Shown: positions 21,653 to 40,966, numbered from the stretch's first letter. The stretch: 40,966 bases of DNA from Candidatus Zixiibacteriota bacterium (GCA_020058315.1 JAGVEK010000002.1:1-40966), one strand, 5' to 3'. Numbers and translations are program-made. The notes: a model not told the origin generated them from the letters alone.

Positions 21653-21658
21653 CGCCCT

Positions 21659-24450: not shown

Positions 24451-24569
24451 AACGGTCCAAGGCCAACCCATCAAGATCGCCGGATAATTGAGCCAGCCAT
24501 CGCCTTGGTTGACATTTCATTCCTGATTTGAGATGACATAAGGATTCAGATTTTATTGAGTCCGAGCAA

Positions 24570-24767: not shown

Positions 24768-25743
24768 AGTCTCGGCTATCGCGTTTTTCTCCGAGGACGA
24801 TGCCGATGAATGGGACACCGAACGCCACCAGCCGTCATCCAAGCCGGACAAGGCGACTTCGGTGGCAGCGGCAGTCGAGACAAAGGAATGGCCAAAGGGG
24901 CCTCACGGCACCCCGAACGCGTTCAATCGCAGTTCCCTGTTCTCCGCAGGAGGGAAGCACATCCCCAGTTCCCTACCAATGGCAAGAGGGCGGTCGTGGA
25001 TCGAAGGTGCGCTGGTCGCCTCCATGCCCAACTACGAAATCCTATACACTGGCCCGCTTCTCGACCAGCATGACAAACGCGTCTTTCAGCACATAGCGTC
25101 CATCATGCGAGAGCGGAACATCCCCGCAGGCGGAACGTTGGAAATCCCCGGATACGCACTTCTTCTATCCATGGGAAAGACCGACGGGAAGGCCAACTAC
25201 GAATCGCTTGCCGCGTCACTGAAGAGGCTTTGGGAGGGGACCATCACATTCATGAAGACGGCCTCGGGGTCGTGGACCGACGTTCGCATGCTCATCACCG
25301 GGGGGCAGGATCACCGGACCAAGGCATTTCGCATAGCCCTCCATCCCGCCATGTCGCTCCTGCATGAATACGACGTTGCAAAGATCGACCTAAAACGAAA
25401 GGCCGGACTGTCCTGCCAGCTCGCGTCCTTCCTCCACGACTTTTATTCGAGCCATCGTCTGGCCGTCCCATTTCAAGTGGCGGAGCTTCAACGGCTCAGC
25501 GGAAGGACCTGCGATTCCAAGACTTTCAGACGCGAACTCCGAAGGGCCTTGGTCGAGCTTGAAAATTGCATCCCGCCGGTATTGGCTCCTGGATCGAAAA
25601 TCGACAGAAACAACGGCGTCATCGCGAAAAAAGCGGAGTTGGCATTTGTCGTCGGCCCGGCCCAACCAACGAAGGTCGCTATCGTTCCTAACCGAGCACC
25701 CAAGAAGCCCGCCGTCAAAAAACGGAGAGCGTTCGTCCTTTAA
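24754..25743 (+). CDS. TrfA-like plasmid replication initiator
   Basis: Within ORF 24556..25743, Met at 24754 (MERNEVSAI...). The segment PNAFNRSSLFSAG and its length and organisation resemble TrfA-family Rep. It is flanked by iterons on both sides. Confidence 0.65.
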   Translation: MERNEVSAIAFFSEDDADEWDTERHQPSSKPDKATSVAAAVETKEWPKGPHGTPNAFNRSSLFSAGGKHIPSSLPMARGRSWIEGALVASMPNYEILYTGPLLDQHDKRVFQHIASIMRERNIPAGGTLEIPGYALLLSMGKTDGKANYESLAASLKRLWEGTITFMKTASGSWTDVRMLITGGQDHRTKAFRIALHPAMSLLHEYDVAKIDLKRKAGLSCQLASFLHDFYSSHRLAVPFQVAELQRLSGRTCDSKTFRRELRRALVELENCIPPVLAPGSKIDRNNGVIAKKAELAFVVGPAQPTKVAIVPNRAPKKPAVKKRRAFVL

Positions 25744-25903
25744 AAGACGGCATCCACGCTCTGGACTTCCAAACCCGCAGTGCGTCTCACCGGAGAATTT
25801 AACACCGACCCGGCGCGCGGAAATCGTTGCCGTACGAACGCTGTGCTTTACAACCGTCCTTCTCCGTGATGGAATCAACTTGAGAGACTACGGGAGAGAC
25901 GGC

Positions 25904-26143
25904 ATGAAGAAAAAGAACAATGACGGCGAATTTTCGGGTATCGACAACATCGGGACAATTCGCTCATTCGTGGGAGGCCATGAAGAACGTCCATATTTCG
26001 CAAATAGCAATCACCCCATTCCGTTGGCATCGAGCCTTAACGAAGATGTCCACTATGATCTTCCTCCGCCGTCGTTGGAGCTTGTCGCACGAATCAATGC
26101 CCTAGCCCCTGACGACTCCGAGTTGGAGCCGTTGGACGACTAA
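25904..26143 (+). CDS. Small acidic hypothetical protein (possible antitoxin partner)
   Basis: 79 aa from the Met at 25904 (MKKKNNDGEF...), GGGAGAG RBS. It ends 2 nt before the next ATG. Confidence 0.5.
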   Translation: MKKKNNDGEFSGIDNIGTIRSFVGGHEERPYFANSNHPIPLASSLNEDVHYDLPPPSLELVARINALAPDDSELEPLDD

Positions 26144-26145
26144 GC

Positions 26146-26658
26146 ATGGCACCAAAACCGTGGCCCGCCCCAAGGAAAGGCGATATTGTTAGTTGCCTCT
26201 ATCCCTTCGACGACCCAACTGGTCCTGTGTCCAAAGCCCGCCCTGCCCTTGTCATGGCGGTATTCGCCAAAAAGGACGGCAGCATTTGGGTTGATGTCGT
26301 TCCAGGAAGCGGTCAATCCACTTCCACCCAAGCGACTGCAAAGCCTCCGCAACTTTGGGAGATCGAAGAGCCAGCGGATCCGGATGGCCTAAACAAAACC
26401 AATCTACATGAGGCCACTCGATTTAATTTCTCGCACCTCAGTCGGCTCCCATACACCGGCGAGAGGTTTTCACAAGGACAGCGAGACAGCCCCGTATTTG
26501 GAAGGGAATCGACAAATCTCTTGTCATCCAAAGCGGCAGCCAAGGTTGCCGCTCAAAACGCCGACCCCGCCGTTGTGACACCACCCGTGGTGACGGTCAA
26601 GCGCTCGCGAGCAACACTCGTGGCCAATGCCGTCGAAACCCCACAATCAGACCCGTAG
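26146..26658 (+). CDS. PemK/MazF-like (SH3-fold) protein, tentative
   Basis: 170 aa. The N-terminal PRKGDIVSCLYPFDDPTGPVSKARPALVMAV resembles the GDI...RPxLV signature of PemK/MazF toxins. The C-terminal 70 aa are atypical. The stop lies inside the first iteron. Confidence 0.4.
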   Translation: MAPKPWPAPRKGDIVSCLYPFDDPTGPVSKARPALVMAVFAKKDGSIWVDVVPGSGQSTSTQATAKPPQLWEIEEPADPDGLNKTNLHEATRFNFSHLSRLPYTGERFSQGQRDSPVFGRESTNLLSSKAAAKVAAQNADPAVVTPPVVTVKRSRATLVANAVETPQSDP

Positions 26659-26757
26659 CGGAACGCACCAAAGCCCGTAGTAGAACGCGCCAAAGCCCGT
26701 AGCAGAGCGCACCAAAGCCCGTAGTAGAGCGCACCAAAGCCCGTAGTAGAGCGCACC
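26648..26757 (+). repeat. Iteron cluster (5 contiguous 22-bp repeats), core of a putative oriV
   Basis: Units at 26648, 26670, 26692, 26714 and 26736 share the consensus AAAGCCCGTAG(T/C)AGAGCGCACC. The last two are identical. They are head-to-tail with no spacers. Confidence 0.9.
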
Positions 26758-26801
26758 TTGACGCCTCGCAAACCCTGTACTGGCAACGGTTTGCGGGTGC
26801 C

Positions 26802-26847
26802 TAAGGTCTTTTAAGGCTTCTTAAGGCCTTTTAAGGCCTTTAAGAAG
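26802..26847 (+). repeat. Helically phased 10-bp repeats (TAAGGCCTTT x ~4.5) next to the iterons
   Basis: TAAGGTCTTT TAAGGCTTCT TAAGGCCTTT TAAGGCCTT TAAGAAG. Confidence 0.85.
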
Positions 26848-26906
26848 ACGAAGCGGAAGTCGTTTCCCCTACCTTACGGTAGGCTCACCGCCTCCGCCCA
26901 CCATCG

Positions 26907-26934
26907 AAAAATCAGGGTGAGGTTCCCTCACCCT
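26907..26934 (-). terminator. Rho-independent terminator for the leftward parA-cargo operon
   Basis: A 9-bp stem AGGGTGAGG/CCTCACCCT with a 3-nt loop (26914-26934). On the minus strand it is followed by GATTTTTCG. It lies ~130 nt after the stop at 27066. Confidence 0.6.
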
Positions 26935-27065
26935 TAAACCGTCACCGGGCACGGCGGGCCTTGCCGCCGCTTGCCGCCCGCATGGCGGGCGGACCATTGA
27001 GAAACCCAGCAAAAACCGCCACGCCCCCCCCAACGCTTGCGACAACAAGTTATGCAAGTGGCAAC

Positions 27066-27890
27066 TCAAATCGACAACCCTCCTCCGCCGGCCATCGACA
27101 CAACGCCTGAGGTTTTCTTCGTTCCTGCCAGCATCACCAACTCAGCACAGGCCGACTCCATGAATAAAAGACCCTCGACAGCCGTCCCATGGGTATGCCG
27201 AAGCGTTTCGGCCACCACCGGGAAACGCAGGTCAAGATCCGCCAACGCAATGGATACCGCGTCCCCCTCCTCAATGGGAGGAAGGCCCGGCCACGACTCT
27301 TTCAATGCGGCCGCCAACGAACCGCCAACAACCGAAAGAAGAAAACTCTCTCCCTCGATCGGTACGCCCCCGTACCAAGAGAGGTCATCAATTCGTTTCA
27401 CTATCGCCGACACACCCTTGGCAAAAAGCTCCAGCGTAACCCGTTCGCCGAGATCGAACACGACAAGAGCCTCGTCAAACGTGAACCCGGCGCACGAGTC
27501 GACATCGCGGACACCGCCGTCACTGACAAGGACGAACATCCAGTTCGTCTGGTCCAAAAACGGATTCATATCGGTGGCATGAAGCAGTGCCCGGAAACCC
27601 GCCTCGAGTTCGGAGAGGGCAAGCAGGTCGGAGACAATCCGGTCGATCAAGAAATGCCTGGTCGAATCGAAGCGAAATTCCACCGTCCGGCCATCGTCCG
27701 AAATGCAGGGCGCCGCCCCCCAGACCCACTCTTTGCGGTCGTCGGGGTTCTCGTCGACAATCCGCCCCAGGACCTCGACAGACCTAAGCAGAACGGACGG
27801 ATCGCCATCCATCCGAAGGCCCACGTCGAACCCAAGCCGCAAATTACCCACCTCCTCTTCGGGGAGGCCGCACTCAAATTTAATCGCCAT
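27066..27890 (-). CDS. Highly acidic hypothetical protein
   Basis: 274 aa with a GAGGG RBS. By eye there are ~50 D+E against ~20 K+R. No recognisable motif. Confidence 0.7.
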   Translation of the reverse strand: MAIKFECGLPEEEVGNLRLGFDVGLRMDGDPSVLLRSVEVLGRIVDENPDDRKEWVWGAAPCISDDGRTVEFRFDSTRHFLIDRIVSDLLALSELEAGFRALLHATDMNPFLDQTNWMFVLVSDGGVRDVDSCAGFTFDEALVVFDLGERVTLELFAKGVSAIVKRIDDLSWYGGVPIEGESFLLSVVGGSLAAALKESWPGLPPIEEGDAVSIALADLDLRFPVVAETLRHTHGTAVEGLLFMESACAELVMLAGTKKTSGVVSMAGGGGLSI

Positions 27891-28100
27891 CGAGCCCTCA
27901 CTGTCGACTGCCTGTCGGCAGATGCAAAAAGAACGCCGGCACGCCCTGTCCGGGGGGACCGCCTATGCCAACCCATATCGCAACGGACCAAGGCCTCATC
28001 CTGGATCAAAAAGGCACATATTCCGGCGAATGGAACGCCCATGCCAACGACACGGTCGGAACCATGTCGATGAAGGCGAGACTTTACGGGTAATTTGGAC

Positions 28101-29663
28101 TTACTGCTTCTCGCTAGGCACCTCGGAAGATTCTGATATCTCCTCAGCTCGTGCCGCCATTGTGAGTCGGGAAGCGAATCCGGGATAGGCAAAATTGATA
28201 TCGTCGAGCATCGAGTTGACCAATCCCATTGCGTCTGGAGCTGAATCCTCCATCAGCCGATGTGACGGAAGCGGAACCCGATGGAATCTGTGTAGCGGGT
28301 TCATGCAATTGGTTAAGTTGGTATCACGCAACGCGCCCCACTGGCCGTGCACAAATCCAGATGGCCAACCGTAGAAACGGTCGTAGTCGCCCTTTGTGCC
28401 GGAATCCTCCGCCAACTTTCGCAAATCCTTCCCGCACCAATGCCCCAGATCCATCTGAACGTATTCCTGATAGAAATCCTCGTTGGCGAGAGCCTCAAGG
28501 GTGGCCTTCATAACAAATCGCGGCTTCTCCCCAGCAGTCTCCTCAAATTTCAGCAAGGCCAATTTTGCCTGCCCTGAACCGTATTTCCTGAACTTCTCCC
28601 ACATAGCGTCGTCACCGCAGTGAACCAAATAAGCGAACGATATCCGACATTCCGCCAGCGTGCGGAGCAGGACTCGGCCCGTGATTCCAAACCCGTTCGG
28701 TACCGCCAGAATTTCCAGCAGGCAGGATAATGCGAATAAGCCAAAGCCGAATACCGCATCGTGTTTGGCGTCCACTCCACTGGTAGCAAGAGTGCATGCC
28801 CAGTGATCGATCAAAGCATCTCGCACATCTTTCAGCTGCGTTGCAAAGGCATCGAAGTCGTGTTGCGAGCGATCCACCTTTGCTGGAGGCATTGGAGGCA
28901 TAGGGAGACATTGCGTCCGGTCGAGGCACTCCTTCCAGAAAGCTTCCGGCCATTCGCTTTGCTTCTCATCTCCGTCAAGCCCCATCGAAAAAGACATTTC
29001 CGTGGATCTGATGAATGGTCTCACGGACGCCATTTCTCCCCTGTTCGGATATTCCACCAACTCGTGCCACTCTTCTCGAAGCGACTCTGGGAACCTCAGC
29101 TCCCCCAATCCAATCTTGAATAGCAAGCTCAACCACCGAACGTCGGTGGCCTCTTGTGATTGATGATCGAAAGTCTTAAGCACCGAATCCCCTAGCGTCC
29201 GCCAATCGTCGTCGGCAGGAGTGGCAGCGAGCATCGCTCGCCAGATGTCTTTGCCTGGAAGACTCTCCAACAGCAAAAGTGGCCTCAGGGCTGCATACCC
29301 AAGAGGATGACGGATTACAGTTTTTACAATGCATTCGATGATTTCAACAGGCTGGGATGGAAGTGCTGACTGATTTAGGCTCCATCCCTTGGCCTTGGCG
29401 ACTCCGCTCTCGTCCCTATATTTCATGCCGACGGCAGCGATCTCGCGAAATGCCGACAACGCAGCGGCACGAGGAAGAACAGTCACCGTTAAGCATGCCC
29501 AAAGCATCTCAGGGAGCCGTTGGTTCGCCCACGACTGGAAAGAGACGCCAGGCAAGGTCATCATCGGAGGAATGAGCGCCTTTCCTACCCGTGAGTGACC
29601 TGCTAGCGGTGTTGAAAGCTTTCCATTTCCTTGACGGTACCCCGCCTTTTTCTTTTTAGCCAT
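28101..29663 (-). CDS. Large hypothetical protein
   Basis: Within ORF 28101..29684. The ATG at 29663 (MAKKKKAGY...) is preceded by GGGAGGAG at good spacing. 520 aa. No family recognised with confidence. Confidence 0.75.
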   Translation of the reverse strand: MAKKKKAGYRQGNGKLSTPLAGHSRVGKALIPPMMTLPGVSFQSWANQRLPEMLWACLTVTVLPRAAALSAFREIAAVGMKYRDESGVAKAKGWSLNQSALPSQPVEIIECIVKTVIRHPLGYAALRPLLLLESLPGKDIWRAMLAATPADDDWRTLGDSVLKTFDHQSQEATDVRWLSLLFKIGLGELRFPESLREEWHELVEYPNRGEMASVRPFIRSTEMSFSMGLDGDEKQSEWPEAFWKECLDRTQCLPMPPMPPAKVDRSQHDFDAFATQLKDVRDALIDHWACTLATSGVDAKHDAVFGFGLFALSCLLEILAVPNGFGITGRVLLRTLAECRISFAYLVHCGDDAMWEKFRKYGSGQAKLALLKFEETAGEKPRFVMKATLEALANEDFYQEYVQMDLGHWCGKDLRKLAEDSGTKGDYDRFYGWPSGFVHGQWGALRDTNLTNCMNPLHRFHRVPLPSHRLMEDSAPDAMGLVNSMLDDINFAYPGFASRLTMAARAEEISESSEVPSEKQ

Positions 29664-29704
29664 GAAACTCCTCCCGTCTGGCACAAATAATGGACCAATA
29701 ATCC

Positions 29705-29929
29705 CTACTGGGACAACATGAGAAATCTAATGGCGTCGACATTCCCTTGCTCCGCCGCGCGTCTAATCCATCGGTCCGCTTCAACTTCATCTTTTTGCAC
29801 GCCACGTCCCAAGGTATACCGAGCCCCAAGGTGATACTGGGCCGCCGCATTCCCGCGCTCTGCCGCTTTTTTATACCAGCGAACCGCTTCAGCGTCATCA
29901 ATTTGCACACCGCGGCCATCAGCGTACAT
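29705..29929 (-). CDS. Sel1/SLR-repeat protein, two repeats only (possibly a fragment)
   Basis: YADGRGVQIDDAEAVRWYKKAAERGNAAAQYHLGARYTLGRGVQKDEVEADRWIRRAAEQGN is the canonical Sel1 repeat pattern. Confidence 0.65.
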   Translation of the reverse strand: MYADGRGVQIDDAEAVRWYKKAAERGNAAAQYHLGARYTLGRGVQKDEVEADRWIRRAAEQGNVDAIRFLMLSQ

Positions 29930-29985
29930 ACGCCCCCCTTATTGTTCTTGTTCTTTTTAGTAGTGCTGCATCGTTGGACGCGATC

Positions 29986-31131
29986 TCAATCATCTCCGGA
30001 TACCCATGGAGCAGGAAGCTTATTTTTTAACGCTCCTTTTCCTGCGGATGACACAAATTGAATGACTATCGGCAGCACGAACATCACGATGGCAACCAAT
30101 ATCTCCGCTCCTTTTCCTGCCGATACAACAAATGCCAAATACCCCCATACCGCTATTGTTTGCACCACCTGAATATTTCTCTGAAGTATCCAGTGGGCTT
30201 TCAATGATGGGAATTGGCAAGCGTTCAGCTTTGCTCTGATATAAAAAAACTTGAAGAATGAAAACAAGCCAAATGTTAAAAAATTCACCACGGAAGTGAT
30301 GAACGCTATGCCGAACATTAGCCCATACGAACGCTCAATACTTTCTGTTTCTGCGGAAAGCGCCATGTCATCTTCTCGTTTTTGGCGCTCCAAGTCATCT
30401 TCTCTCAGCCTTTCTTCATTGGCCTTTCTCTCGGCCTCCCTTCTCTCGGTTTGACGCTTGGCGAGTGTGACTTTCACATAATCCTGAACCCGAAGCTTCG
30501 TGTATGCAATACGAGTCTTGGACGTGTCGCCAAGCGACTCAACCTCCGCCCTGGCCCACAACCCACTGTCAATGTGCCCTGCCGCAATTTCCTTGGCGAC
30601 GTGGGCGTAAATCGCATTAACGATAGCCTCTGGAAGCTTGTCATCCTCAATTATTCTGGAACCCTTGGGAATGGGTACAGGGTTCGACTGAGTTTCCCCG
30701 GGAAGGCTTTCGATGGAGCCTTCCTCACGAATGACCAAACAGCCGGCCATCATGTCGTGAAGGCATTGCCTGCGTTCGGTGAACAGACTCATTAAAAAAC
30801 CAATTCCAACAATCAAAGCCGACGGCAGCTTTCCGACAGCCCGCCCCAAAGCCCTCATGAATGAAATCCGATCACCATTCATATCAACAACCTTCAAACC
30901 CATCGCCTGTTTGCCAAACGTTGCCTGTCTCGGCGAGCTCTCCATCACTGCGAAATAAATCCAGAAGATCAACATTCCAAGACCATTAGCCGCTGATTTT
31001 GGATCAGGCAAGCTGGCAATGTAATTCGCCAGAAGCCAATGACCGGCGGCGACTGGCAAAATCAAAACGAGCACATCGATAAGCACGGCCGCCACTCTTT
31101 GTCCAAACCCCCCGTATGTAAATTTTTCCAT
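29986..31131 (-). CDS. RDD-domain membrane protein with coiled-coil and C-terminal TM region
   Basis: GGFGQRVAAVLIDVLVL...ATFGKQAMGLKVVD...RQCLHDMMAGCLVI is the RDD family pattern. It has an ERREAERKANEERLREDDLERQKRED linker and hydrophobic C-terminal helices. Confidence 0.75.
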   Translation of the reverse strand: MEKFTYGGFGQRVAAVLIDVLVLILPVAAGHWLLANYIASLPDPKSAANGLGMLIFWIYFAVMESSPRQATFGKQAMGLKVVDMNGDRISFMRALGRAVGKLPSALIVGIGFLMSLFTERRQCLHDMMAGCLVIREEGSIESLPGETQSNPVPIPKGSRIIEDDKLPEAIVNAIYAHVAKEIAAGHIDSGLWARAEVESLGDTSKTRIAYTKLRVQDYVKVTLAKRQTERREAERKANEERLREDDLERQKREDDMALSAETESIERSYGLMFGIAFITSVVNFLTFGLFSFFKFFYIRAKLNACQFPSLKAHWILQRNIQVVQTIAVWGYLAFVVSAGKGAEILVAIVMFVLPIVIQFVSSAGKGALKNKLPAPWVSGDD

Positions 31132-31140
31132 CTCGCCCCT

Positions 31141-31509
31141 TTATTGTTCTTGTTTTTTTGATTGACTGTTGAGTGTTAGCCCGTCGCTTACCCCAACCGC
31201 ATACCCCACAGCACCAGCCAACGCAATCATTACCAGGATGGCCGCCGCTGCTACGAACGCTCCCTTCCTCTTTATCCACTTCAAGTCCGACACCACCGAC
31301 GACATATCCTTAGCCAAGACTTCAACCCGTTGCGAAGCCATAGTCGCTTCCCAAACCCCGACCGCTTGCCAGACGTGGGGATGCTTCAAGTCGAAGCCAT
31401 GATCCAAAGCCCACTTCATGAACTTCACACGCCGCGACTCCGGCCATCCTTTCGTGCAGGAATCGAATGCCGACGGATGAGACCTGAGTTCGTTGGGCTT
31501 TGATGGCAT
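31141..31509 (-). CDS. Small membrane-anchored hypothetical protein
   Basis: The ATG at 31509 is preceded by AAGGAGG. 122 aa with a C-terminal TM segment AFVAAAAILVMIALAGAVGYAVGV. Confidence 0.65.
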   Translation of the reverse strand: MPSKPNELRSHPSAFDSCTKGWPESRRVKFMKWALDHGFDLKHPHVWQAVGVWEATMASQRVEVLAKDMSSVVSDLKWIKRKGAFVAAAAILVMIALAGAVGYAVGVSDGLTLNSQSKKQEQ

Positions 31510-31518
31510 CAACCCTCC

Positions 31519-32304
31519 TTAGCGGCCCAGCTTCTTGGCAACCCCGTCGATGACCGAGCGCCAGATATCACCCTGCCGCGTCCGATACTCGTCAATCCAT
31601 CCCGAGGTGATCATTCCGGCAATGGGATCGGTTGCTTCCGCGATTTGGCCGCACTCCGCGAGGCTTGCCTTTTCATTGGAGGCATAGCAGTTCGCGCCTT
31701 CGGAGTGCATCGTGGCCCCGAGGGCAAACAGCACGTCGTCGGGAAGCAACCTCTTGATTTCCTCGTACCGGGCAATCATCGCCGGATCCTTGCGCGCGTT
31801 TTCACTTTTCGGGTTGCCGACCACAAGGTATTGGGTGTCGGGGCCAAACAATTCGACAATCTCCCTGGCCGCCGCGAAGCTCTCAGCCTGCTCGTCGAAA
31901 GGCAGGACCACGACAAGCCGATACCCCGATTTCTCGAAAATCCGCCTCATGACCGTCTCATTGGGGAACAGGCCCCGAAGATCCTTGTCGGCACCTCCGG
32001 CCAGGTCGACCATGACGTAATCGGCGTCATGCTGAAGAGCCATCAAAATCGCCTTGCCCTGATCAGCCGTCGGGGCGGTCAGGTATGGCACCCCGCTCCA
32101 AATCTCCTGCCGATCAGGCGGAAGCAGATCACCATTTCCATTCTTGAGCCCGTAACGATTCGCCAGAACCATGTTCCGATAGTAGGCGTCGATGGCGATG
32201 GTTTTCACGCCGTTCTCATGCCTTAGGAAATCCAGCAGACTCACGGCCAGAAAAGATTTTCCGACACCGCCCTTGCGGCTTGCGAAGACAAAGCAGATTT
32301 TCAT
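31519..32304 (-). CDS. parA: ParA/MinD-family partition ATPase
   Basis: The Met at 32304 (MKICFVFASRKGGVGKS, a deviant Walker A) is preceded by AGGGAG. Later there is a DLAGG motif. Confidence 0.85.
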   Translation of the reverse strand: MKICFVFASRKGGVGKSFLAVSLLDFLRHENGVKTIAIDAYYRNMVLANRYGLKNGNGDLLPPDRQEIWSGVPYLTAPTADQGKAILMALQHDADYVMVDLAGGADKDLRGLFPNETVMRRIFEKSGYRLVVVLPFDEQAESFAAAREIVELFGPDTQYLVVGNPKSENARKDPAMIARYEEIKRLLPDDVLFALGATMHSEGANCYASNEKASLAECGQIAEATDPIAGMITSGWIDEYRTRQGDIWRSVIDGVAKKLGR

Positions 32305-32318
32305 TTTCGAACTCCCTT

Positions 32319-32828
32319 TCACTTTGATTTATCGGCTCCAAACACTTCATCACCCCATCCCGACCCGGAGTTCCCAAGCGGGAGGTAGTCTGTTTTTTCA
32401 CCGGTCGCGCCTTTATTCGGCTCGGATTTTCCAGATGGTGCCGCCCCCTCATGGGGGCGGCCGGCGGCGTTAGCCGCCGCAGTTTTTTCCTCAATTTCTG
32501 AGTTTTTCGGCCGAGCCGAAGGCGAGGCCGGCTGCGGTAGCCCTGCCAACGATTCGATTCTGATTTGCGGCTGGTTTTTCAGGCCCTCATCGAGCATCCT
32601 CTTGGCTTGCTCGACTTTTGCCGTGTCGATGCCTTGGGCTTTCTTCGCCCTTGAAAAAACCGTACAGGCCGAACCCGATGAAACGGGATGCCCCAACGCC
32701 TCCGAAAGCCTGTCGGCAATCCACGGCCATGAGCGACCCGTTTGCCGCAATGCCTCAATCTCGTTAACCAGCTTTGAAACAGCGACCGACAATCCCAGTC
32801 CGTCAAAGCCGCTCCTGATCACGAACAT
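32319..32828 (-). CDS. Hypothetical protein upstream of parA (possible DNA-binding/partition adaptor)
   Basis: The ATG at 32828 is preceded by GAGGAG. ~169 aa with an HTH-like [30 protein letters not shown] and a low-complexity C-terminus. Its stop overlaps the upstream end of the extended parA ORF (GTG at 32322, GTGA overlap); the preferred parA ATG is at 32304. Confidence 0.65.
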   Translation of the reverse strand: MFVIRSGFDGLGLSVAVSKLVNEIEALRQTGRSWPWIADRLSEALGHPVSSGSACTVFSRAKKAQGIDTAKVEQAKRMLDEGLKNQPQIRIESLAGLPQPASPSARPKNSEIEEKTAAANAAGRPHEGAAPSGKSEPNKGATGEKTDYLPLGNSGSGWGDEVFGADKSK

Positions 32829-32889
32829 GATCACCTCCTCTTGAAACGATCCCTATGTCATCTCACCGAGACGGTCCTCAGGCAACTTG

Positions 32890-33210
32890 CTGTTATGGAT
32901 TTCTGACAAATGGTCGTGATTTGTAATGCCGGGTCGTGAAAAATCCGACTCTGTCGTTGTTTGTTAGCGTTTGTTAGATAGCCGAATCAGCATGATCCAC
33001 ATTAAAAATGCAGGCTTCGGGCGGAAGCGGCGGAGCCGTCCAGGTCGACTTTCAGGGGACTGAACACGCATCCGACGACCTTCGGACATCGACGAGTCCC
33101 GATCAGCAGCATGTTGATTCCCGCGACTCCGTGTCCTACTTTGTGAGACCCAATCCGACAAAGTCGCGGCCTGTTGGCATCTGTTATGGATTGTTAGGGT
33201 TTGTTAGATG
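32890..33210. repeat. Cluster of short direct repeats in the parA / mob divergent intergenic region (candidate centromere/oriT-accessory sites)
   Basis: TTGTTAG occurs 4 times (32961, 32971, 33191, 33201), plus a CTGTTAT variant at 32890 and 33181. The longer units are GTTTGTTAGATAGCC (32969-32983) and GTTTGTTAGATGCC (33199-33212). CTGTTATGGATT occurs twice (32890, 33181). GGTCGTGA occurs twice (32912, 32932). Confidence 0.6.
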
Positions 33211-33563
33211 CCTCAAACCATCACGGCACAACCCACCCACGCGATATGACCCGCCACTTCGATGGGAACAGAGCTCAATAGCGCCAGCGAACCACCCCAT
33301 CAGGCACCTGCAGCACCTTGAAAACCGCCCCTCGGGACACTCCCTCGGGGGCAAAGCGGCGGCGTTAACACGCCGAACAGCATATAAAAAAACCACCCCC
33401 AAAAAGCAAGGGAAAAACCAAAGGCAGGATTTCGTTACACACCATCGCAGTAAACTGCCCTGCGGGCAAAGTCAAAACCATCAACAACGCCTCCGAAACG
33501 CAGGCAGGACAAGGGTCTGACGCCCCTTGAATTACAAATAATAAAAATGCCAGTCAAATGAAG

Positions 33564-33590
33564 GCAAACCCTTATCCCATGCGGGTTTGC
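33564..33590. other. Inverted repeat GCAAACCC-N11-GGGTTTGC upstream of the mob operon (oriT-type hairpin candidate)
   Basis: 8-bp perfect arms, ~100 nt upstream of the mobC-like start. Two TTGACT hexamers follow at 33635-33670. Confidence 0.4.
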
Positions 33591-33691
33591 TGGCGAAAAC
33601 ATTTACTTTTCATAATTCATTTCGGACGGACGGCCTTGACTCCAGCACTTTCCGGCGAGAGGCTTGACTGAACCGATAAGAAAAACAACAA

Positions 33692-34159
33692 GTGGAGACC
33701 GCCTTGGAGAGCGCAAAAAGACGCGGGCGACCGAGAAGCCATGGCCCGAGAGTCGTGACGATTCAGGTCCGTCTGACAGTGGAGGAGGATGCGCGGTTTG
33801 ATGCCGAAGCCGCTTCGCTGGGTGTCGACAAGGCCGAACTCGCCCGTCGCCGCATCTTCCAGAAGGACGAATCCGACGAAAACATACGAGTCGCACGCAT
33901 CCGCGCGGAAGAGATCGCCTCGCGTGTCGAAGCCGTTGAAAAGCTCCTTATCGACGCTGCCAGCCGCAGCACCAACACTCAAAAATTCGTTCAAGGCTCG
34001 TACCACGCGATCAAGGAATTGCAGAAGTCCGCCAAAGAACTTGACGGCAAACTCTCCGGCCTTGCCACCGCAAACGACATTGAAAAGCTCGGACCGCCCC
34101 TGGCCCAAATCGCCTCGGCATCGGAGAAAATTTCCAGGAATCTCGGAAATGGACGGTAG
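33692..34159 (+). CDS. MobC/TrwA-like relaxosome accessory protein (RHH N-terminus)
   Basis: GTG start. RGRPR...VVTIQVRLTVEEDARFDAEAASLGVDKAELARRRI is the typical RHH mobilisation-protein pattern. It lies directly upstream of the relaxase. Confidence 0.65.
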   Translation: METALESAKRRGRPRSHGPRVVTIQVRLTVEEDARFDAEAASLGVDKAELARRRIFQKDESDENIRVARIRAEEIASRVEAVEKLLIDAASRSTNTQKFVQGSYHAIKELQKSAKELDGKLSGLATANDIEKLGPPLAQIASASEKISRNLGNGR

Positions 34160-34162
34160 GAA

Positions 34163-37100
34163 ATGCTGTCCATATCCACCCTCCACTCGTTCGAGTATTA
34201 CGTCTCGGAAGGTCTGAAGGAGACTTTCAGCTATTACAGCGGACGGGGTGAGAACGGTGACGAACGGGAGCGGGATCCGGCCGGAAAGTGGGTAGGGAAA
34301 TACGCCGACCGGCTCGGGCTTCCGGCGCACGCGAAGATTGAGGATTTCGCCGCCCTCTATTTCGGTTTCGACCCGAACACCGGAAAGCCGCTAACCAAAA
34401 GCGCCGACCAGACTGGATGGCAACTTTTCAAAGTCAAACAACTGCTCGCCGATGAAAACTTAACAGGACCAAAACGGTTGCGGCTTGAACGAAGGGCGAG
34501 GAAACTCTCCGCGGAAATCGCCGGGCGGGACAAGAATAGCGCGTCATCCAAGAAGGGCAATGGCGCCAAAGGCGATGACGAGGAAGTAGCCAAGCCGCGG
34601 AAAAAGTCCGTTCATCGCCCAGGCGTCGACCTTACCTTCACCCCGCCGAAGGACTTCTCGCTTCTGTTGGCCGCCTCATCCCCGGCGGACCGGAAAAGGC
34701 TCCTGGCCATCTACCGTGAAGCGGTCGAGGAGACCCTTGAAAGCGTCGAGAGGGAGTTTGCCCAAACCCGCATTGTCATCAACAAGCCCGAGGCGGAAGG
34801 CGGAAAGGTTGTCGTCGCGGAAAAGACCAAGGGGCTCGCCATCCTGATGTTCGAGCACTTGGGCGCAAGGCCCGTCGGAGACAACGCTCCCGATCCCGAC
34901 GGACACTTTCATTGCCTTGTCATGTCCCCGGTCCTTTGCCAGGACGAGAAGACGCGAGCCCTCTTCTCCGACCGCATCAAAAGGAACATCAAGGCACTGG
35001 GCGCCGAGTCTCGGGCCAGATTGGCCTTGAAGCTCGCCGAACGCGAGGGCATCGAGGTCGTGCCCGACGAGCAAAAGCGGATCACCTCGTTTCGCCTGTC
35101 CGGCGTCGATGCCAAGGACCGCGTCTTTTTCTCCAAGCGCAGGGGACAGATCGAAGCCCTTATGGCGCAAAGCGGGGAGAAGGCCGGCCTTTCGACACTG
35201 AAAACCCGCGAGACCAAAGGCGACTGGGACCGCCAGGACCTGATCGACGATTGGAAGGGGACGATGGCCCAAAGGGGGATGAGCCGCGAGAGGATGCTCG
35301 CCCCGGATGCCAAGGCAAAGGGATGGACGGCCAGGACCGACGAGCAAATCGTCGCCGCCTTGCAGGACATGAAGGTCTACTTTTCAGTTCCGGAATTGCG
35401 GCAGTCCCTTTGGGAGGAGGCCCAGTTCATCCGACCGCCCGAGGGGCAAACGCTTTCGACATGGATTGACGGGCGCTTGAATGCCATCCTCAAGAATCCC
35501 GATCTCCTGCGAATCGAGCTGCCCGAGGACAGCATCGAGCAAAGGAGCGTTCGCGGCCAAAACGCGGACCACGAGCCGATCTTCACCACGAAGAGCCTCA
35601 TCCTCCGCGAAATCGCCTTGGACAAAGCCCTCGGCGTCCTTGGCGGGTCGAACAAACACGCCATCCCATGGGAGGTCGCCCTGACGCACGTCGAGGCCTT
35701 GGAAGTACGCAAAACGGCGGACTCAAAGGACAAGTGGAGCTATCGCGACGACCAGCGGGCGGCGATTGGCCAGGTTCTTTTCGGCGCCGACATCTGCTTT
35801 GTCCAAGCCTTCGCCGGAACGGGAAAAACGACCGCCGCCGCCGCGATGTTCGAGGTTTGGAAGAGCGAGGGGAAGAAGGTCTTCGGACTGGCCCCGTCCA
35901 ACAAGGCAACGGGCCAATTGGCGGATGACTGCGACCTGACCAAAAGCGAGGCAATGACGGTCGCAAAATTCCTCTACGACGTTGAGAAGGGAAAGCTCAA
36001 GGCCAAGGACATTGCCAACTCAATAATTTTCATCGACGAGGCCAGCATGGTCGGGTTCGACGATGCCGAGAAACTCATCGAACTTTCACTGGCGAACAAG
36101 TGCAAGATCGTTTTCCAGGGCGATTCCGAGCAGTTGCCATCGGTCCCCAAGGGCCGTTTCTTCGCCAACGCCGTTGAGCAACGGCTCGGAAGCGCCGCCG
36201 CAGAGCTAACCGTCATCACGAGGCAGCGTGAGCAGTGGGCCGCGGCAGCCACCGAAGCCGCCGCCAAGGGCCTCTTCGCCGAAGCCCTCGAAGCCTATGA
36301 CCAACGCGGCCTGATCAAGGCCGAAGGCAGTGACGAAAACCTGTATGACAGAATCGTTGAGGCCCACCTTGCCGACAAGAACGACTTCAAGGACAAGATC
36401 ATCGTCGCCTCGCGAAACTCGGATGTCGACGCGATCAACGCGCGGATCCGCCTTTCCCTTGTCAAACGAGGCAGGGTCGACACGGGACACGAACTTTTCT
36501 CCACCGTCGATGGCCGCGAGAAGCCGATGATGGTCGGGGCGAGGGACCGCATCGTCTTTTGCGCCAAGGCGGAAGGCGACGGGGCCACGGCCAACAACGG
36601 CGATCTGGCAACCGTCCTGTCCGTTGGCCGCCGCGACGACGACAGCCTTGACGTGAAGGTCAGGCTCGACCGTACCGGAACGGAGTTCTCGTTCAACACC
36701 GCCGAGTTCTCCGGCATCGATCACGCCTACGCGATTACCGTGCATAAATCACAAGGCGCAACTGTCAATTCTTGCAGGTATCTGTTCTCCGACTTTGTCT
36801 CTTCCGAGCTGGCTTACGTGGGCATGTCCCGCCATCGCGACAGCCTTGAAATCTTTGTGAGGGCCGACAGGAAGGACTCCATGGCCGGCATGATGGGCAA
36901 GAAGATCGAAAAATTCTCCGCACGGGATCTCGCCGACAACGCGACACTGGCGGAATTGAACCGCGAGGCCCAAGGGCTTTACGAAAAGGCGGTCGCAGGC
37001 AAGGCGCAATCGCTTGAAAAAATGCCCGCCATTGCGCAGGCGGCAGCATCCGCGCGCCAGTCCATTTCACCGACACGCCAACCGCCCGTCAGCCAACCCG

Positions 37101-38053
37101 CCGCCTCACTCGACGGCCTTGTCGCGACCATTGAGGAACTTTCGGATCACATGAGCCTTATCGCCCACGAGTTGGCCGAGGCAGAACACGCCCGCCAAAT
37201 GACGGCGGACGCCAAGCGCAGGGCGGCCGAAAACGAGAGCAAGGCCGCCGCCGCGAGGGCTGCCGAGGCAGCGGCGCAGGAGGCAGCGAGACGCAACGCG
37301 CAGGCAACAATCGAAGCAAGGCAAGCAAGACGCATCGAGGAGGTCGGGAAAGCCGTCGGAAGGCTTTCAGAGAAGGACCGCATCGACCTTGCCTGCCATC
37401 TTGCCGGCATACCCAACCCCAAAGCAGCAGGCATGTTCAACGAGACTGAGTTCAGGCGCGACATGAAGGAGGCCGCGCTATTCGGAGCCGTCGGCAAGGT
37501 CTACACGGCGGAGACCGACAGTCAGGGTGTCCCGAACGGCTTCCTGCGCGTTTACGAGACGACTTCGGCGAGGCTCCTAACAGCCGCCGCCGACTCCATG
37601 GCGCGGAACCTGAATCCCATCTTGGCATGGGGCCAAGAAAGGGACGCGGCACGCGCGGGAAACGTCGCAGATATTTCTGGTCTAAGACGCGAGATGGCCG
37701 ACGAGATGGTCAAACTCAAACTCAACAACCCACCGAAATCGAAGACCGACGCCATCGGCATGGCGATTCACATTCGCGACATCGACCCCGGCCCGGACGG
37801 TACCATCAGCATCAAGCCAAGGTATTTCAGCGCAAACTGGGTGGTCGCCTCCCACAAAGCCGGCTGGGTCGCCATACCAAGGGCGGAATTGGAGAAATTC
37901 GGAAAAAAAGCCGAGCATCTCATGAGGGGCGTATCCCTCCCGCTGGAACGCCTCCCTGGAGGAACAGGCGTCGCCGACCCATCATCCGGCCGAACGCTGG
38001 GGGCCGGCAACTCGCTCATTCCAACACTCACGCCCAAGGAAATCGAACGCTAA
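34163..38053 (+). CDS. MOBF-family relaxase-helicase (TrwC/TraI-like)
   Basis: The N-terminus MLSISTLHSFEYYVSE...SYYSG carries the Tyr pairs. VDLTFTPPKDFS is present. The histidine triad context is DPDGHFHCLVM. There is an AAA_30-type Walker A FAGTGKTT. The helicase C-terminus reads AYAITVHKSQGATV. Confidence 0.9.
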   Translation: MLSISTLHSFEYYVSEGLKETFSYYSGRGENGDERERDPAGKWVGKYADRLGLPAHAKIEDFAALYFGFDPNTGKPLTKSADQTGWQLFKVKQLLADENLTGPKRLRLERRARKLSAEIAGRDKNSASSKKGNGAKGDDEEVAKPRKKSVHRPGVDLTFTPPKDFSLLLAASSPADRKRLLAIYREAVEETLESVEREFAQTRIVINKPEAEGGKVVVAEKTKGLAILMFEHLGARPVGDNAPDPDGHFHCLVMSPVLCQDEKTRALFSDRIKRNIKALGAESRARLALKLAEREGIEVVPDEQKRITSFRLSGVDAKDRVFFSKRRGQIEALMAQSGEKAGLSTLKTRETKGDWDRQDLIDDWKGTMAQRGMSRERMLAPDAKAKGWTARTDEQIVAALQDMKVYFSVPELRQSLWEEAQFIRPPEGQTLSTWIDGRLNAILKNPDLLRIELPEDSIEQRSVRGQNADHEPIFTTKSLILREIALDKALGVLGGSNKHAIPWEVALTHVEALEVRKTADSKDKWSYRDDQRAAIGQVLFGADICFVQAFAGTGKTTAAAAMFEVWKSEGKKVFGLAPSNKATGQLADDCDLTKSEAMTVAKFLYDVEKGKLKAKDIANSIIFIDEASMVGFDDAEKLIELSLANKCKIVFQGDSEQLPSVPKGRFFANAVEQRLGSAAAELTVITRQREQWAAAATEAAAKGLFAEALEAYDQRGLIKAEGSDENLYDRIVEAHLADKNDFKDKIIVASRNSDVDAINARIRLSLVKRGRVDTGHELFSTVDGREKPMMVGARDRIVFCAKAEGDGATANNGDLATVLSVGRRDDDSLDVKVRLDRTGTEFSFNTAEFSGIDHAYAITVHKSQGATVNSCRYLFSDFVSSELAYVGMSRHRDSLEIFVRADRKDSMAGMMGKKIEKFSARDLADNATLAELNREAQGLYEKAVAGKAQSLEKMPAIAQAAASARQSISPTRQPPVSQPAASLDGLVATIEELSDHMSLIAHELAEAEHARQMTADAKRRAAENESKAAAARAAEAAAQEAARRNAQATIEARQARRIEEVGKAVGRLSEKDRIDLACHLAGIPNPKAAGMFNETEFRRDMKEAALFGAVGKVYTAETDSQGVPNGFLRVYETTSARLLTAAADSMARNLNPILAWGQERDAARAGNVADISGLRREMADEMVKLKLNNPPKSKTDAIGMAIHIRDIDPGPDGTISIKPRYFSANWVVASHKAGWVAIPRAELEKFGKKAEHLMRGVSLPLERLPGGTGVADPSSGRTLGAGNSLIPTLTPKEIER

Positions 38054-38062
38054 TGCCAAACC

Positions 38063-38692
38063 CTACGCATTGGCGGGCAGCACTCCGGCCAAAAGCTCCG
38101 ACTCATCCTGCGCCGACCTGGCCCGACCGGCCTCGGTTTCCAACGCGAGGAGATAGGCATCGTGAAACCGCCGCCGCGTTGCCACGTCGTCCCAAGGCAA
38201 GCCCATCGCCTCGATCATCGGCATCCAGACGATTTCGAGTCCGGCCAGACTCTTGGCATTGAAGTCCGACACTGACGAGGTGAGCGAATGGGAAACGAGG
38301 CCCCCATCCGGCTTGGCCCACATCGGCTGGGGCTCGGCGAAATCGGAGAGCGTCGAGAAGCACATCCCGCGACGCTTCGCGGCCTCCATGGTCGAAGATA
38401 TCCTCTTTGACTGGTGCCAATCACGAATGTCGCCCATGCGGTATGAAACCTTGGCGTTTCTCGCTCCGGAATCCCCTTGCGAATACTGCGGCCCTGACTT
38501 GTCCGCCCGCATTTTCGCAAGCGTTTGTTCCGAGACCCGCAGATAGATTGCGGCGAGCGGAGCGTCAAGAATCGCCTCGGGCGGCATCCGGGCGAGCATG
38601 TCCATAACCTGCAACTCATGCAGCGACGGAAGGCCTGGAATCGGGGCCGTCGGCAGCGTCTCGGGGATTTGTTCGGGAAGTGTCATGGGCAT
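38063..38692 (-). CDS. HTH protein downstream of int (candidate excisionase/recombination directionality factor or regulator)
   Basis: 209 aa. AAIYLRVSEQTLAKMRADKSGPQY...VSYRMGDIRDW is AlpA/Xis-like HTH. It lies 51 nt after the int stop on the same strand. Confidence 0.6.
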   Translation of the reverse strand: MPMTLPEQIPETLPTAPIPGLPSLHELQVMDMLARMPPEAILDAPLAAIYLRVSEQTLAKMRADKSGPQYSQGDSGARNAKVSYRMGDIRDWHQSKRISSTMEAAKRRGMCFSTLSDFAEPQPMWAKPDGGLVSHSLTSSVSDFNAKSLAGLEIVWMPMIEAMGLPWDDVATRRRFHDAYLLALETEAGRARSAQDESELLAGVLPANA

Positions 38693-38743
38693 GGCGCAAA
38701 AGGCCCAATGTTATACCCGACGCCAACCCGGAACCGGAAACGT

Positions 38744-40279
38744 TCAGCCCGCCGAGGCGGCGACATCCGCCTCGCCCTTGTCCTTGCGCGGCCTTCCCGT
38801 CCTTGGCTTCACGGGAGCAAGCTTGTGTGGCTCCGGGGCCTGCAACGGCGGCCAGTCAATGGGCTTCAAGGAGTTGTAAAGATTCGGGGCCGTGGTAAGC
38901 AACGAGTTCTCGATGCGCTGCATGGCAGCCTTCAACTGCAGCCATTCGGCTTCGGTGTAGCGGTCCGTCACGTCGGTTTGCCCGTGGTTGAGCAACTCTC
39001 CGACCATCTCCTTCGAAAGGCCCGCCGCATGGACGGCAGTTGTTCCGAAGGTACGCCGCAGGTCGTGGCGTGTGAGGGTCGGGATGTCCGCCTCGACCTT
39101 CAACCTTTTAAGCAGGTCCTGAGAGTCGCTGTAATGGCCGGTTTTCGAAAAGCGGCTCTTTGCCGGAAAGACGAAACGGCGCGACTTGCCAAAGCCCCGT
39201 CTTGCGGACTCCTCCGCCGCTTCCGTTTTCCGCCGCCTCAACAGCTCCAATGCACATTCGGGCAACGGCAGGCGATGGGCCAGCCCGTTTTTTGTCCTGT
39301 GGAAAAAGACCTCGCCTCTCTCCAAGTCGACCCATGAGTTCATCCATGGATTGACCGCATCGCTCGACGGCTTCTCACCCGCCGGAGCGAGAAGCTCACG
39401 CCACACAAGGCCGGCGTGCTCGGACTTGCGGCAGCCGAGAATCAGCATCAACAGGATGTAGTCGCAACCGGTACGGTTGTCGTTCACCGCCCTCTTCGAC
39501 CAAAGGGCCTCGAGGAACCTGCCCAGCCGCTCCCTGGTCAGCGGATTGCGAACGCCCCGCTCATCGCGATCCTTCGCCAACTCGGCCCGCGTGCGATAGA
39601 CCTTCAGATGAACGAGGGCGCGGAACGGATTCGCCAACATTGACGGAACCCTTCCTTGCGACTGGGCGGTGATCGCCTCCATGGTCAACACGTGCTCGAC
39701 CGACGTCGTCGCCCAGCGAAACGCCTGCTCGGTCGACGTCCTGGCCCTCTTCGCCAACTCGTCGAACTTCCCCTTGATCTCGTCGGCTCCAAGCGACTTG
39801 ATCCGGCGATCCTTCCAGCATGACAACTTTCGTTCCGAGCGCTCGAAATTGCTGATTGTGCTTTCTTGCGCGGGGGAACTGCGGGACTTCAGGTGCTCCT
39901 TGTATTTCTCCATCGCCTGCCCGACCGTGGCCTCCGCGAGTTGAAGCCTGCGCCTCTCGGTGTTCGGATTCGATCCGGTCTCACGCATCATGACCGAAAG
40001 GCCCGCCGCCTTGTCGCGAGCGTCCTGCACCTTCACGAACTCGGCGACCTCGCCGATCTTCGATTTCATCACCCGGCCGGCGACCTTCTTTTGCATCACG
40101 TAGGTCTTCTTCGACGCCGAAACTTTCACTCCGAAACCGGTTAGCTTCGTGTCAAATACGATATACGGCGTCCTGTCGGTATTTTCCTCGAAGACGATTT
40201 CACCGCCCAGGAGTTCGACGGGCCGCTTTTCGATGCAAAGCCGGTTAAGGATGACGTCTTTGGTAAGTTCAATTTTCAT
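38744..40279 (-). CDS. int: Tyrosine recombinase / phage-type integrase
   Basis: Within ORF 38744..40297 (TTG), ATG at 40279 (MKIELTKDV...). The C-terminal catalytic region reads ...LILGCRKSEHAGLVW...LAHRLPL...TRHDLRRTFGT...ELLNH...VTDRYT. It sits at the island edge next to attR. Confidence 0.9.
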   Translation of the reverse strand: MKIELTKDVILNRLCIEKRPVELLGGEIVFEENTDRTPYIVFDTKLTGFGVKVSASKKTYVMQKKVAGRVMKSKIGEVAEFVKVQDARDKAAGLSVMMRETGSNPNTERRRLQLAEATVGQAMEKYKEHLKSRSSPAQESTISNFERSERKLSCWKDRRIKSLGADEIKGKFDELAKRARTSTEQAFRWATTSVEHVLTMEAITAQSQGRVPSMLANPFRALVHLKVYRTRAELAKDRDERGVRNPLTRERLGRFLEALWSKRAVNDNRTGCDYILLMLILGCRKSEHAGLVWRELLAPAGEKPSSDAVNPWMNSWVDLERGEVFFHRTKNGLAHRLPLPECALELLRRRKTEAAEESARRGFGKSRRFVFPAKSRFSKTGHYSDSQDLLKRLKVEADIPTLTRHDLRRTFGTTAVHAAGLSKEMVGELLNHGQTDVTDRYTEAEWLQLKAAMQRIENSLLTTAPNLYNSLKPIDWPPLQAPEPHKLAPVKPRTGRPRKDKGEADVAASAG

Positions 40280-40298
40280 CAGATTCCCCGCCTGCAAA

Positions 40299-40423
40299 AG
40301 GTAGCCCAGCGATAACGCCGAATCCGTTGCAGGACAAGGGATTCAGACTTGGAACAAAGAAAGGTAGCCCAGTGGCCGATTATAGCATCCAAACTTTGAC
40401 GCTGGGCTACCTATGGGCTACCT
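40299..40423. repeat. Four GGGCTACC motifs (two inverted, two tandem direct): putative integrase arm-type sites, right arm
   Basis: AGGTAGCCCAG at 40299-40309 and 40362-40372. CTGGGCTACCT at 40402-40412 and ATGGGCTACCT at 40413-40423. Confidence 0.55.
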
Positions 40424-40473
40424 CAGGCGTGATATCAAGTGGATTTATACGGGTTTAAACGAGATCAAAACAG

Positions 40474-40507
40474 TGGACAGAATCGGATAACTCATTGATA
40501 ATCAATG
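40474..40507 (+). promoter_or_regulatory. Outward-facing sigma70-like promoter (TGGACA-N17-GATAAT) overlapped by the 15-bp palindrome CATTGATAATCAATG
   Basis: -35 at 40474-40479, -10 at 40497-40502, palindrome at 40493-40507. It lies just upstream of the candidate hybrid mutS starts (TTG 40495, GTG 40519). Confidence 0.4.
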
Positions 40508-40518
40508 CGCAAACACAG

Positions 40519-40966
40519 GTGGCGGAAGGCATCGAAAAGCACACCCCCGTAATGCAGCAATGGCTGCGCGCCAAGGCAGAGCATGCGGACAAGCTGCTGT
40601 TTTTCCGCATGGGGGATTTCTACGAGCTGTTTTACGAAGATGCCCAGCAAGCCGCTCGCCTGCTCGACATCACGCTGACCGCGCGCGGCCAGTCGGCCGG
40701 CAAGCCGATTGCGATGGCCGGCATTCCCTACCACGCGGTCGACGGCTATCTGGCTAAGCTGGTCAAGCTCGGCGTCTCGGTGGCCATCTGCGAGCAGATC
40801 GGCGACCCTGCGCTGGCAAAGGGCCCCGTCGAGCGCGCAGTGACGCGCATCGTCACGCCGGGCACGCTGACTGATGCCAATCTCCTCGACGATCGCAACG
40901 ACAGCCTGCTGCTGGCGCTGACCATCGACCGCCAGCGCGCGGGGCTGGCCTGGCTCAACCTCGCCA
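40519..40966 (+). CDS. mutS: DNA mismatch repair protein MutS, 5' part with island-supplied start (runs off window end)
   Basis: The frame reads (V)[56 protein letters not shown]...IPYHAV...ICEQIGDP..., the canonical MutS domain I. The start is uncertain (GTG 40519, TTG 40495 or ATG 40552). It is not in the ORF track because there is no stop in the window. Confidence 0.85.
40540..40559. repeat. attR core (direct repeat CACACCCCCGTAATGCAGCA)
   Basis: Identical to 7909-7928. It lies in frame within mutS codons HTPVMQQ. Confidence 0.8.

Follow-up and report, generated by a model that had tools for sequence, protein, structure and literature searches.

The locus studied here raises the question of how mutS is transcribed and translated once an integrated island has separated it from its own start, and whether the island could thereby influence the mismatch-repair level of its host. 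The window, which is the whole stretch of DNA that was analysed, is 40,966 nucleotides long and ends within mutS. A preliminary description had proposed that the island provides mutS with a replacement promoter, an operator-like palindrome and a new start codon. All the sequence features named in it were found at their given positions. We consider it likely that mutS is re-headed by the element, with a leader probably read from a TTG codon, a promoter located in the spacer between the integrase gene (int) and attR, and an IHF-type site, not an operator, at the palindrome.

Under this explanation, the element would integrate by site-specific recombination, mediated by a tyrosine recombinase, into the codons for HTPMMQQ at the beginning of mutS. 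The gene would thereby be severed from its own promoter and its first ~14 codons, which would be left at attL. The int-proximal arm would give mutS an in-frame leader of ~15 codons, most likely beginning at TTG 40495, and a replacement promoter would lie at some point within the 260 bp between int and attR. The host would still make MutS at full length, though with a foreign N-terminus. We infer the position of the promoter, the start codon used, the binding of IHF and any effect on the MutS level from the sequence of the window and of its relatives.

The island, its borders and its relatives

The integrated mobilizable island (7929..40539, ~32.6 kb) has a relaxase, a replicon and defence cargo, together with int and an HTH gene. 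The G+C content is lower and uneven within the 32.6 kb between the repeats. The island is bordered by a perfect 20-bp direct repeat, CACACCCCCGTAATGCAGCA, of which one copy forms the attL core (7909..7928) and the second the attR core (40540..40559); both code for the HTPVMQQ residues of MutS. The orphaned 5' stump of the native mutS was located at attL (7867..7938, plus strand) and reads ..AAELAA-HTPVMQQ-YV-stop (residues before the motif, ..VVPANSAAELAA), with candidate starts at TTG 7867 and GTG 7873/7876. An in-silico join of the left flank to the sequence after attR gave an unbroken MutS N-terminus, and excision is predicted to restore an in-frame native mutS without a frameshift.

A gene pair for a ParD-like antitoxin and a PIN-domain toxin (7173-7870) was observed directly 5' of the native mutS start. 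The stump start overlaps the TGA stop (7868-7870) of the PIN-domain gene. As this stop overlaps the TTG/GTG start region, the native mutS may be co-transcribed or coupled with the toxin-antitoxin operon.

The tyrosine integrase is encoded on the minus strand (38744..40279), divergently from mutS, and is a 511-aa protein with the Pfam domains Arm-DNA-bind_3 and Phage_integrase. Directly downstream of int lies a gene for a 209-aa protein (38063..38692, minus strand), which is syntenic in the relatives. Pfam and NCBIfam searches with the window copy of this protein returned no match. Its nearest language-model clusters include HTH_17 (excisionase-type) and Cox, and a weak HTH_17 match was found in its counterparts in three relatives (L212-214). 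These similarities make it a possible directionality factor with an excisionase-type HTH, which we regard as a lead only. Paralogy between this protein and a second HTH-like protein encoded at 11992-12852 was not supported by BLASTP (E=7.5).

Judged by its flanks (1-7900 and 40540-40966), the contig is probably mis-binned in the metagenome-assembled genome (MAG). The MutS N-terminus is only 42-49% identical to MutS proteins of the same genus as the MAG, versus 77% to its counterpart in a Comamonadaceae MAG. For a SpoU methylase in the flank, a match was found in the Comamonadaceae genome (60%) and in none of the same-genus genomes. A search of 285 genomes of the class of the MAG gave neither an integrase relative nor a DNA match to the arm, which suggests that the contig probably lies outside the lineage of the MAG.

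The closest relatives of the integrase were found in metagenome assemblies (94%, 81% and 59% identity), with mutS at exactly the same junction. A genome scan with one genome per species gave 66 integrase loci of 36-58% identity in Burkholderiales, Xanthomonadales and Enterobacterales. In ~60 of the 66, the H codon of HTPMMQQ is located 180-480 bp upstream of the integrase start, in divergent orientation. Among 5,426 complete E. coli genomes, 72 have a related integrase beside mutS. One of these, UPEC132 (L206), holds a 10.4-kb mobilizable island with a relaxase between ygbA and mutS, where the two att copies can be recognised, as can the native stump MSTIENFDA-HTPMMQQ; PGAP starts its MutS at a conserved second ATG (MQESIDKDLSN-HTP). 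Full-length MutS with all domains is called in the relatives, and mutS is annotated as intact in the E. coli carriers.

E. coli 536 (L209:5977-6947) was rejected as a close homologue. Its mutS-adjacent gene encodes an unrelated 249-aa DUF4102 protein, which showed no BLASTP similarity to the window integrase, and the arm repeats of the two elements are different. The mutS site is therefore used by integrases of two or more unrelated lineages.

The leader and candidate start codons of the hybrid mutS

The hybrid mutS (40495..40966, plus strand) comprises 15 element-encoded residues followed by MutS domain I and is cut by the contig end. The ORF list shows an open frame at 40495..40965 that runs off the contig, and the Pfam domain MutS_I begins at residue 17 of the ORF from 40495, which is the T of HTPVMQQ. 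The mutS frame is open in the window from 40459. Three potential start codons lie in this frame, namely TTG (40495..40497), GTG (40519..40521) and an internal ATG at 40552. The in-frame GTG and TTG of the preliminary description were thus recovered, as were the hybrid N-terminus and the native ..AAELAA-HTPVMQQ sequence that it replaces.

An open leader that is retained across a family can point to translation. The leader analysis covered 62 distinct junctions, in which a frame was counted as open when it extended at least 33 nt into element DNA. The mutS frame was open in all 62, and the other two frames in only 24 and 28. An in-frame ATG is available in 53 of the junctions, and the remaining nine, the window included, have TTG or GTG. 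Together with the published family (PMC5296598), this supports the earlier claim that mutS takes its start codon and N-terminal residues from the island. Within 19 non-overlapping close pairs, leader substitutions at codon positions 1, 2 and 3 numbered 25, 39 and 52 (chi-square p=0.009), and the same 19 pairs gave 26 synonymous changes out of 95 in the mutS frame versus 19/97 and 13/101 in the shifted frames; the family sequences are phylogenetically related, so the junction and substitution counts overstate independence. The differences between the leaders of the window and of the 81% clade (3, 5 and 5 by codon position) show no third-position bias. The substitutions and synonymous changes within the 19 pairs are modest evidence for a leader that is translated, with relaxed constraint.

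The strength of each start signal was calculated as the energy of the anti-SD duplex, in kcal/mol, and set against random positions. The energies were -3.3 for TTG, +1.9 for GTG and -0.1 for ATG 40552, with a median of -2.4 at random positions and -6.4 at the int ATG. In agreement with the preliminary description, no clear Shine-Dalgarno (SD) sequence precedes the TTG or the GTG. The signals at the native mutS start were equally weak.

The clade of the window was compared over ten sequences, which fall into two arm types: type A (the window, L007, L210, L211, L215 and L216) and type B (L008 and L212-214). Type A members have integrases that are more than 90% identical or arms that are nearly identical, and the type B integrase is ~81% identical. 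TTG 40495 is in frame in 10/10 of the sequences and is kept in both arm types, and the GTG occurs only in the near-identical type A arms, without an SD sequence; type B has TCA at this position. Of the two alternative new starts that had been proposed, the TTG is the more likely. In the type B sequence L008, a TAA stop immediately precedes the TTG. In L212-214, the host motif is HTPVIQQ, with ATT replacing the internal ATG, and the GTG is missing as well. Up to residue ~40, these sequences thus offer no start but the TTG, which is also where the JGI annotation begins the full-length 861-aa MutS of L212. It was also observed (L212:900-990, likewise in L213 and L214) that the att core is one base off that of the window and that the internal Met is not universal.

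The 59% relatives start their leader with an ATG preceded by a GAGG SD sequence, and their leader has the same length of 27 codons. An ACG at 40459 in the window aligns with this ATG, and on this alignment the clade of the window appears to have lost an ancestral ATG start. We give the TTG at 40495 about an even chance of being the mutS start used. Use of the GTG at 40519 seems rather unlikely, and use of the ATG at 40552, which would delete the first residues of MutS domain I, less likely still.

Promoter candidates and the IHF-like site in the int-attR spacer

The upstream neighbourhood of mutS offers few sources of transcription. No plus-strand gene reads into mutS, as int and the HTH gene are both on the minus strand, and the island therefore very probably supplies the mutS promoter. 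A sigma-70-like site, TGGACA-N17-GATAAT (40474..40502, plus strand), matches the consensus at 10 of 12 positions, with TGGACA at 40474-40479, a 17-nt spacer and GATAAT at 40497-40502. It was the sole match of this kind in a promoter scan of both strands of 39800-40966 (0.3 expected), and it is the best candidate for the mutS promoter that in-silico analysis gives in the element. When the 220 nt preceding the junction were shuffled, a match of the same class arose in 16% of cases, so the site is suggestive and not compelling.

The claim of a replacement promoter is probable only in its general part. The two named hexamers are absent from the 81% clade, in which the -35 position reads CGGTCA or CAGTCA and the -10 position GAATAA. 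Within 220 nt on the mutS strand, a consensus-like promoter was found in 6/62 family junctions versus 11.2 expected, which indicates that a strong sigma-70 site is not a trait of the family. No alternative promoter common to both arm types or to the family was found by eye or with the same hexamer criteria. The scarcity of consensus-like sites was noted as a hint that elements of the family drive mutS from weak or non-canonical promoters.

The -10 hexamer overlaps the TTG, so this codon would be off the mRNA if the hexamers were used, and the two proposals exclude each other. Translation from such a transcript would have to begin at GTG 40519 or ATG 40552. Either the TTG is the start and the promoter lies upstream of it, or the type A arms gained a new promoter with a GTG or ATG 40552 start. 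We are doubtful that the TGGACA/GATAAT hexamers are the main mutS promoter, and hold it to be a tentative assignment.

A search of sequencing runs found the junction of the window in DNA metagenome runs only. The junction of a related Escherichia element was recovered from four RNA-seq runs, as assembled contigs whose flat mean depth across int and mutS marks no transcript start and to which DNA carry-over may have contributed. Leaderless mRNA was considered for the window and for the enteric TAAAAT-N4-ATG arrangement and was rejected, the spacing to the start codon being too short or too long.

An 18-nt block, GATTTATAYGGGTTTAAA, was observed at 40442-40459, just past the tandem arm repeats. 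It is common to the window and to enteric elements with integrases of no more than ~40% identity, in which it lies at about -100 to -110 from the H codon, and near-identical sister arms of the window are without it. The arms that share this block may be mosaic.

An attP site of the heterobivalent type is defined by an arm-binding integrase and by arm-type sites on both arms. The left arm of the island has a tandem pair of the arm-type repeat GGGCTACC (7992..8010, plus strand). The right arm has four arm-type repeats, GGGCTACC/GGTAGCCC (40300..40422), of which those at 40300 and 40363 are inverted and those at 40404 and 40415 form a tandem direct pair; the four repeats of the preliminary description were thereby retrieved in the int-attR spacer. 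Six copies of GGGCTACC are distributed over both arms and are kept in the relatives. Together with the Arm-DNA-bind_3 domain of the integrase, these sites give a heterobivalent (lambda/P4-like) arrangement. A metagenome pattern scan with the tandem arm repeat returned 120 stretches that were random matches, none arm-like and none with mutS. A phage collection yielded distant integrases only (25% identity or less) and no phage attP for comparison.

The palindrome CATTGATAATCAATG (40493..40507, 15 bp) has 7-bp arms (CATTGAT and ATCAATG) around a 1-nt centre (A) and, as first described, covers both the -10 hexamer and the TTG. Palindromes were counted as perfect matches with arms of at least 7 bp and a 0-1-nt centre and were compared with first-order random sequence. 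The window holds four such palindromes versus 6.8 expected, and the chance of finding one inside the 260-bp int-attR spacer is ~2.6%.

The left arm of the palindrome lies inside an IHF-like site. The IHF consensus WATCAANNNNTTR is matched perfectly on the minus strand at 40488..40500, between the arm-type repeats and the core, and the match, TATCAATGAGTTA, consists of the palindrome left arm plus the five bases to its left. The window contains three matches to the consensus versus 0.66 expected, of which this is one. Among 41 non-enteric junctions, 31 have a minus-strand match with at most one mismatch between -100 and -30, including ten perfect ones, and none has a plus-strand match; the corresponding rates in shuffles were 3.8% (at most one mismatch) and 0.2% (perfect). 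The site was absent at the junctions of the enteric relatives. On the mutS strand, the motif reads YAA-N4-TTGAW, and in the non-enteric relatives it falls in varying reading frames relative to mutS. The motif was also seen at -52, -61/-62, -70/-72 and -82 to -84 from the H codon (loci L008-L077), positions about one helical turn apart, so that it would stay in phase with the core.

In lambda attP, the IHF site H' adjoins the core and lies between the core and the arm-type Int sites. The right arm of the island resembles lambda attP in its tandem arm-type repeats and the arm-binding domain of its integrase, and it has a candidate IHF site, a consensus match, 40-50 bp from the core. It differs in that this candidate site overlaps a translation start with which the element provides a host gene. 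Given its position between the core and the tandem arm repeats, as for H', we read the left half of the palindrome as a putative architectural recombination site; its match to the consensus suggests that it would serve the attP arm as a bending site of the IHF type.

The right half of the palindrome is lineage-specific. The type A arms keep TGGACA (once TGGATA), GATAAT, the GTG and the palindrome (once with its last base changed), and this conservation tells little, as the arms are almost identical overall. They adjoin at least five different mutS alleles, with WLRAK, WFRAK, FLRIK or YLGLK as host residues after the core, which indicates a recent horizontal spread of one element type among hosts. 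In type B, only ATTG..CAAT is left of the dyad, and the syntenic HTH gene is kept. The operator reading is therefore unsupported, since the full dyad is lost in a sister clade that keeps the candidate HTH regulator. What the preliminary description had called operator-like is a dyad that is not conserved, with a left half that coincides with a family-conserved, orientation-fixed IHF-consensus site. The suggested joint control of mutS by Int, Xis or a palindrome-binding regulator is speculative.

Three other explanations were weighed against this evidence. Somewhat short of an even chance, we find it plausible that the hexamers and the palindrome arose by chance in an AT-rich attP arm, and that mutS is read from a weak, non-consensus promoter at 40400-40470, among or after the arm-type sites, with TTG 40495 as its start. 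The frequency of promoter-class matches in shuffles (16%) and the lack of palindrome enrichment in the window are consistent with this, as are the conservation of the TTG across the clade and its choice by the gene caller in L212. The relatives with an ATG at the leader start point in the same direction, since their promoter must be upstream of the homologous position, and the block GATTTATAYGGGTTTAAA at about -100 is common to the enteric elements. Against this explanation, neither inspection by eye nor the scan gave a recognisable conserved -35/-10 pair upstream, and the block is not kept in the other near-identical arms.

It is unlikely, in our estimate, that the hexamers are the working promoter, with a transcript start at ~40509-40511 and translation from GTG or ATG 40552, and that the palindrome is an operator through which Int, Xis or the HTH protein sets the mismatch-repair level. 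The site is the sole sigma-70-like match in the region (10/12), the local chance of the palindrome is low (~2.6%), the HTH gene adjoins int, and the -35, the -10, the GTG and the palindrome occur together in six near-identical arms at no fewer than five mutS alleles. However, all four features are missing in the type B sister arms, the right arm of the palindrome has already changed by one base in L211, and the conserved IHF-like site already accounts for its left arm. The GTG would have a leader of 8-10 nt and no SD sequence (+1.9), ATG 40552 is likewise without an SD sequence (-0.1) and would trim MutS domain I, and the low number of consensus-like promoters at the junctions (6/62 versus 11.2 expected) also argues against this reading.

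It is improbable that the hybrid mutS is poorly expressed or not expressed, with carriers being constitutive weak or strong mutators in which excision restores repair: the start signals are weak for every candidate, the clade is without the ATG start found in 53/62 junctions and a Vibrio splendidus element does control a mutator switch, though by a 2-bp excision scar (PMC5296598), but the mutS frame and domain I are intact, full-length MutS is called in the relatives and mutS annotated as intact in the E. coli carriers, the family-wide open leader and the codon-position bias argue for translation, and the native mutS start is equally weak in its signals.

Possible consequences and comparison with known systems

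In the betaproteobacterial branch, the IHF-type site is invariably found at the replacement mutS start or immediately ahead of it, and in the window it also overlaps the -10 of the one good promoter match. Because of this overlap with the replacement start and the -10, an excisive intasome (IHF, Int and the HTH directionality factor) assembled at attR could shut off or modulate mutS, which we regard as a long shot. If this were true, the mismatch-repair level would be coupled to the commitment of the element to excision or to host IHF levels, and hence to the growth phase. The loss of the ATG in the clade could additionally lower the MutS level in carriers. Mutation and recombination rates are set by the level of MutS, so an element in possession of the mutS promoter and start could tune the pace at which its host evolves, an idea already in print for the mutS-targeting family (2017). 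The window adds a defence-laden, mobilizable example in an uncultured betaproteobacterium, evidence for a TTG start in one clade, and an IHF-like site that overlaps the new gene start in the non-enteric family.

Chu et al. (2017, mBio) described a 27-kb element of V. splendidus 12B01 in the HTPMMQQ motif of mutS, which provides the gene with a new translation start and promoter region (PMC5296598). Excision of the 12B01 element was seen in ~1 in 10,000 genomes, and the 2-bp scar left behind produces a hypermutator; scarless excision was shown for E. coli 536, P. putida F1 and B. multivorans CF2 (PMC5296598). Elements integrated in mutS, from 4 to >150 kb, were reported in hundreds of Beta- and Gammaproteobacteria, and the authors propose that mutS changes from one of two regulatory regions to the other as the element integrates or excises (PMC5296598). 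The window has the insertion into the motif with its repeats, integrase relatives adjacent to mutS, an orphan start and an in-frame start codon. The island is an ordinary new example of this published family, a placement that rests on the site, the gene order and the host taxa.

The likeness to the family extends to the same motif, a divergent tyrosine integrase, an orphaned host start at the far end and a start and upstream region supplied by the element. Cargo and size vary in both, and the host taxa of Table S2 overlap the hosts of the integrase relatives (PMC5296598). Unlike the published elements, the clade of the window is without an ATG start and relies on TTG or GTG. The 20-bp repeats of the window are perfect and in frame, so no 2-bp scar of the 12B01 kind is predicted on excision. 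In the literature on mutS-integrated elements, we found no mapping of the replacement mutS promoter.

Tuanyok et al. (2008) described site-specific recombination at mutS for GI8c of B. pseudomallei MSHR305 and Bt-GI4 of B. thailandensis E264, with a 15-bp repeat, ACGCCGATGATGCAG, that covers the same TPMMQ codons (PMC2612704). GI8c differs in being called a prophage, and the replacement promoter and start are not addressed there (PMC2612704). A new promoter and an altered N-terminus are likewise given to prfC by SXT/R391 at its 5' end, according to the account of Hochhut and Waldor (1999) cited in PMC8409611, and to dusA by IMEVchUSA3 (Durand et al., 2021, PMC8409611). These elements share with the present one the insertion at the 5' end of a housekeeping gene and the supply of a new gene head, for SXT/R391 as far as that account describes it. 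They differ in their target genes and integrase families, and the activity of the dusA promoter was measured, whereas that of the window is a candidate from sequence.

A mismatch-repair operon is also the target of SpyCIM1, a chromosomal island in mutL of Streptococcus pyogenes; the mutation rate depends on whether this island is integrated. In its integrated state, SpyCIM1 silences mutL, and its excision restores mutL. The present family differs from it in that mutS would stay expressed while the element is integrated.
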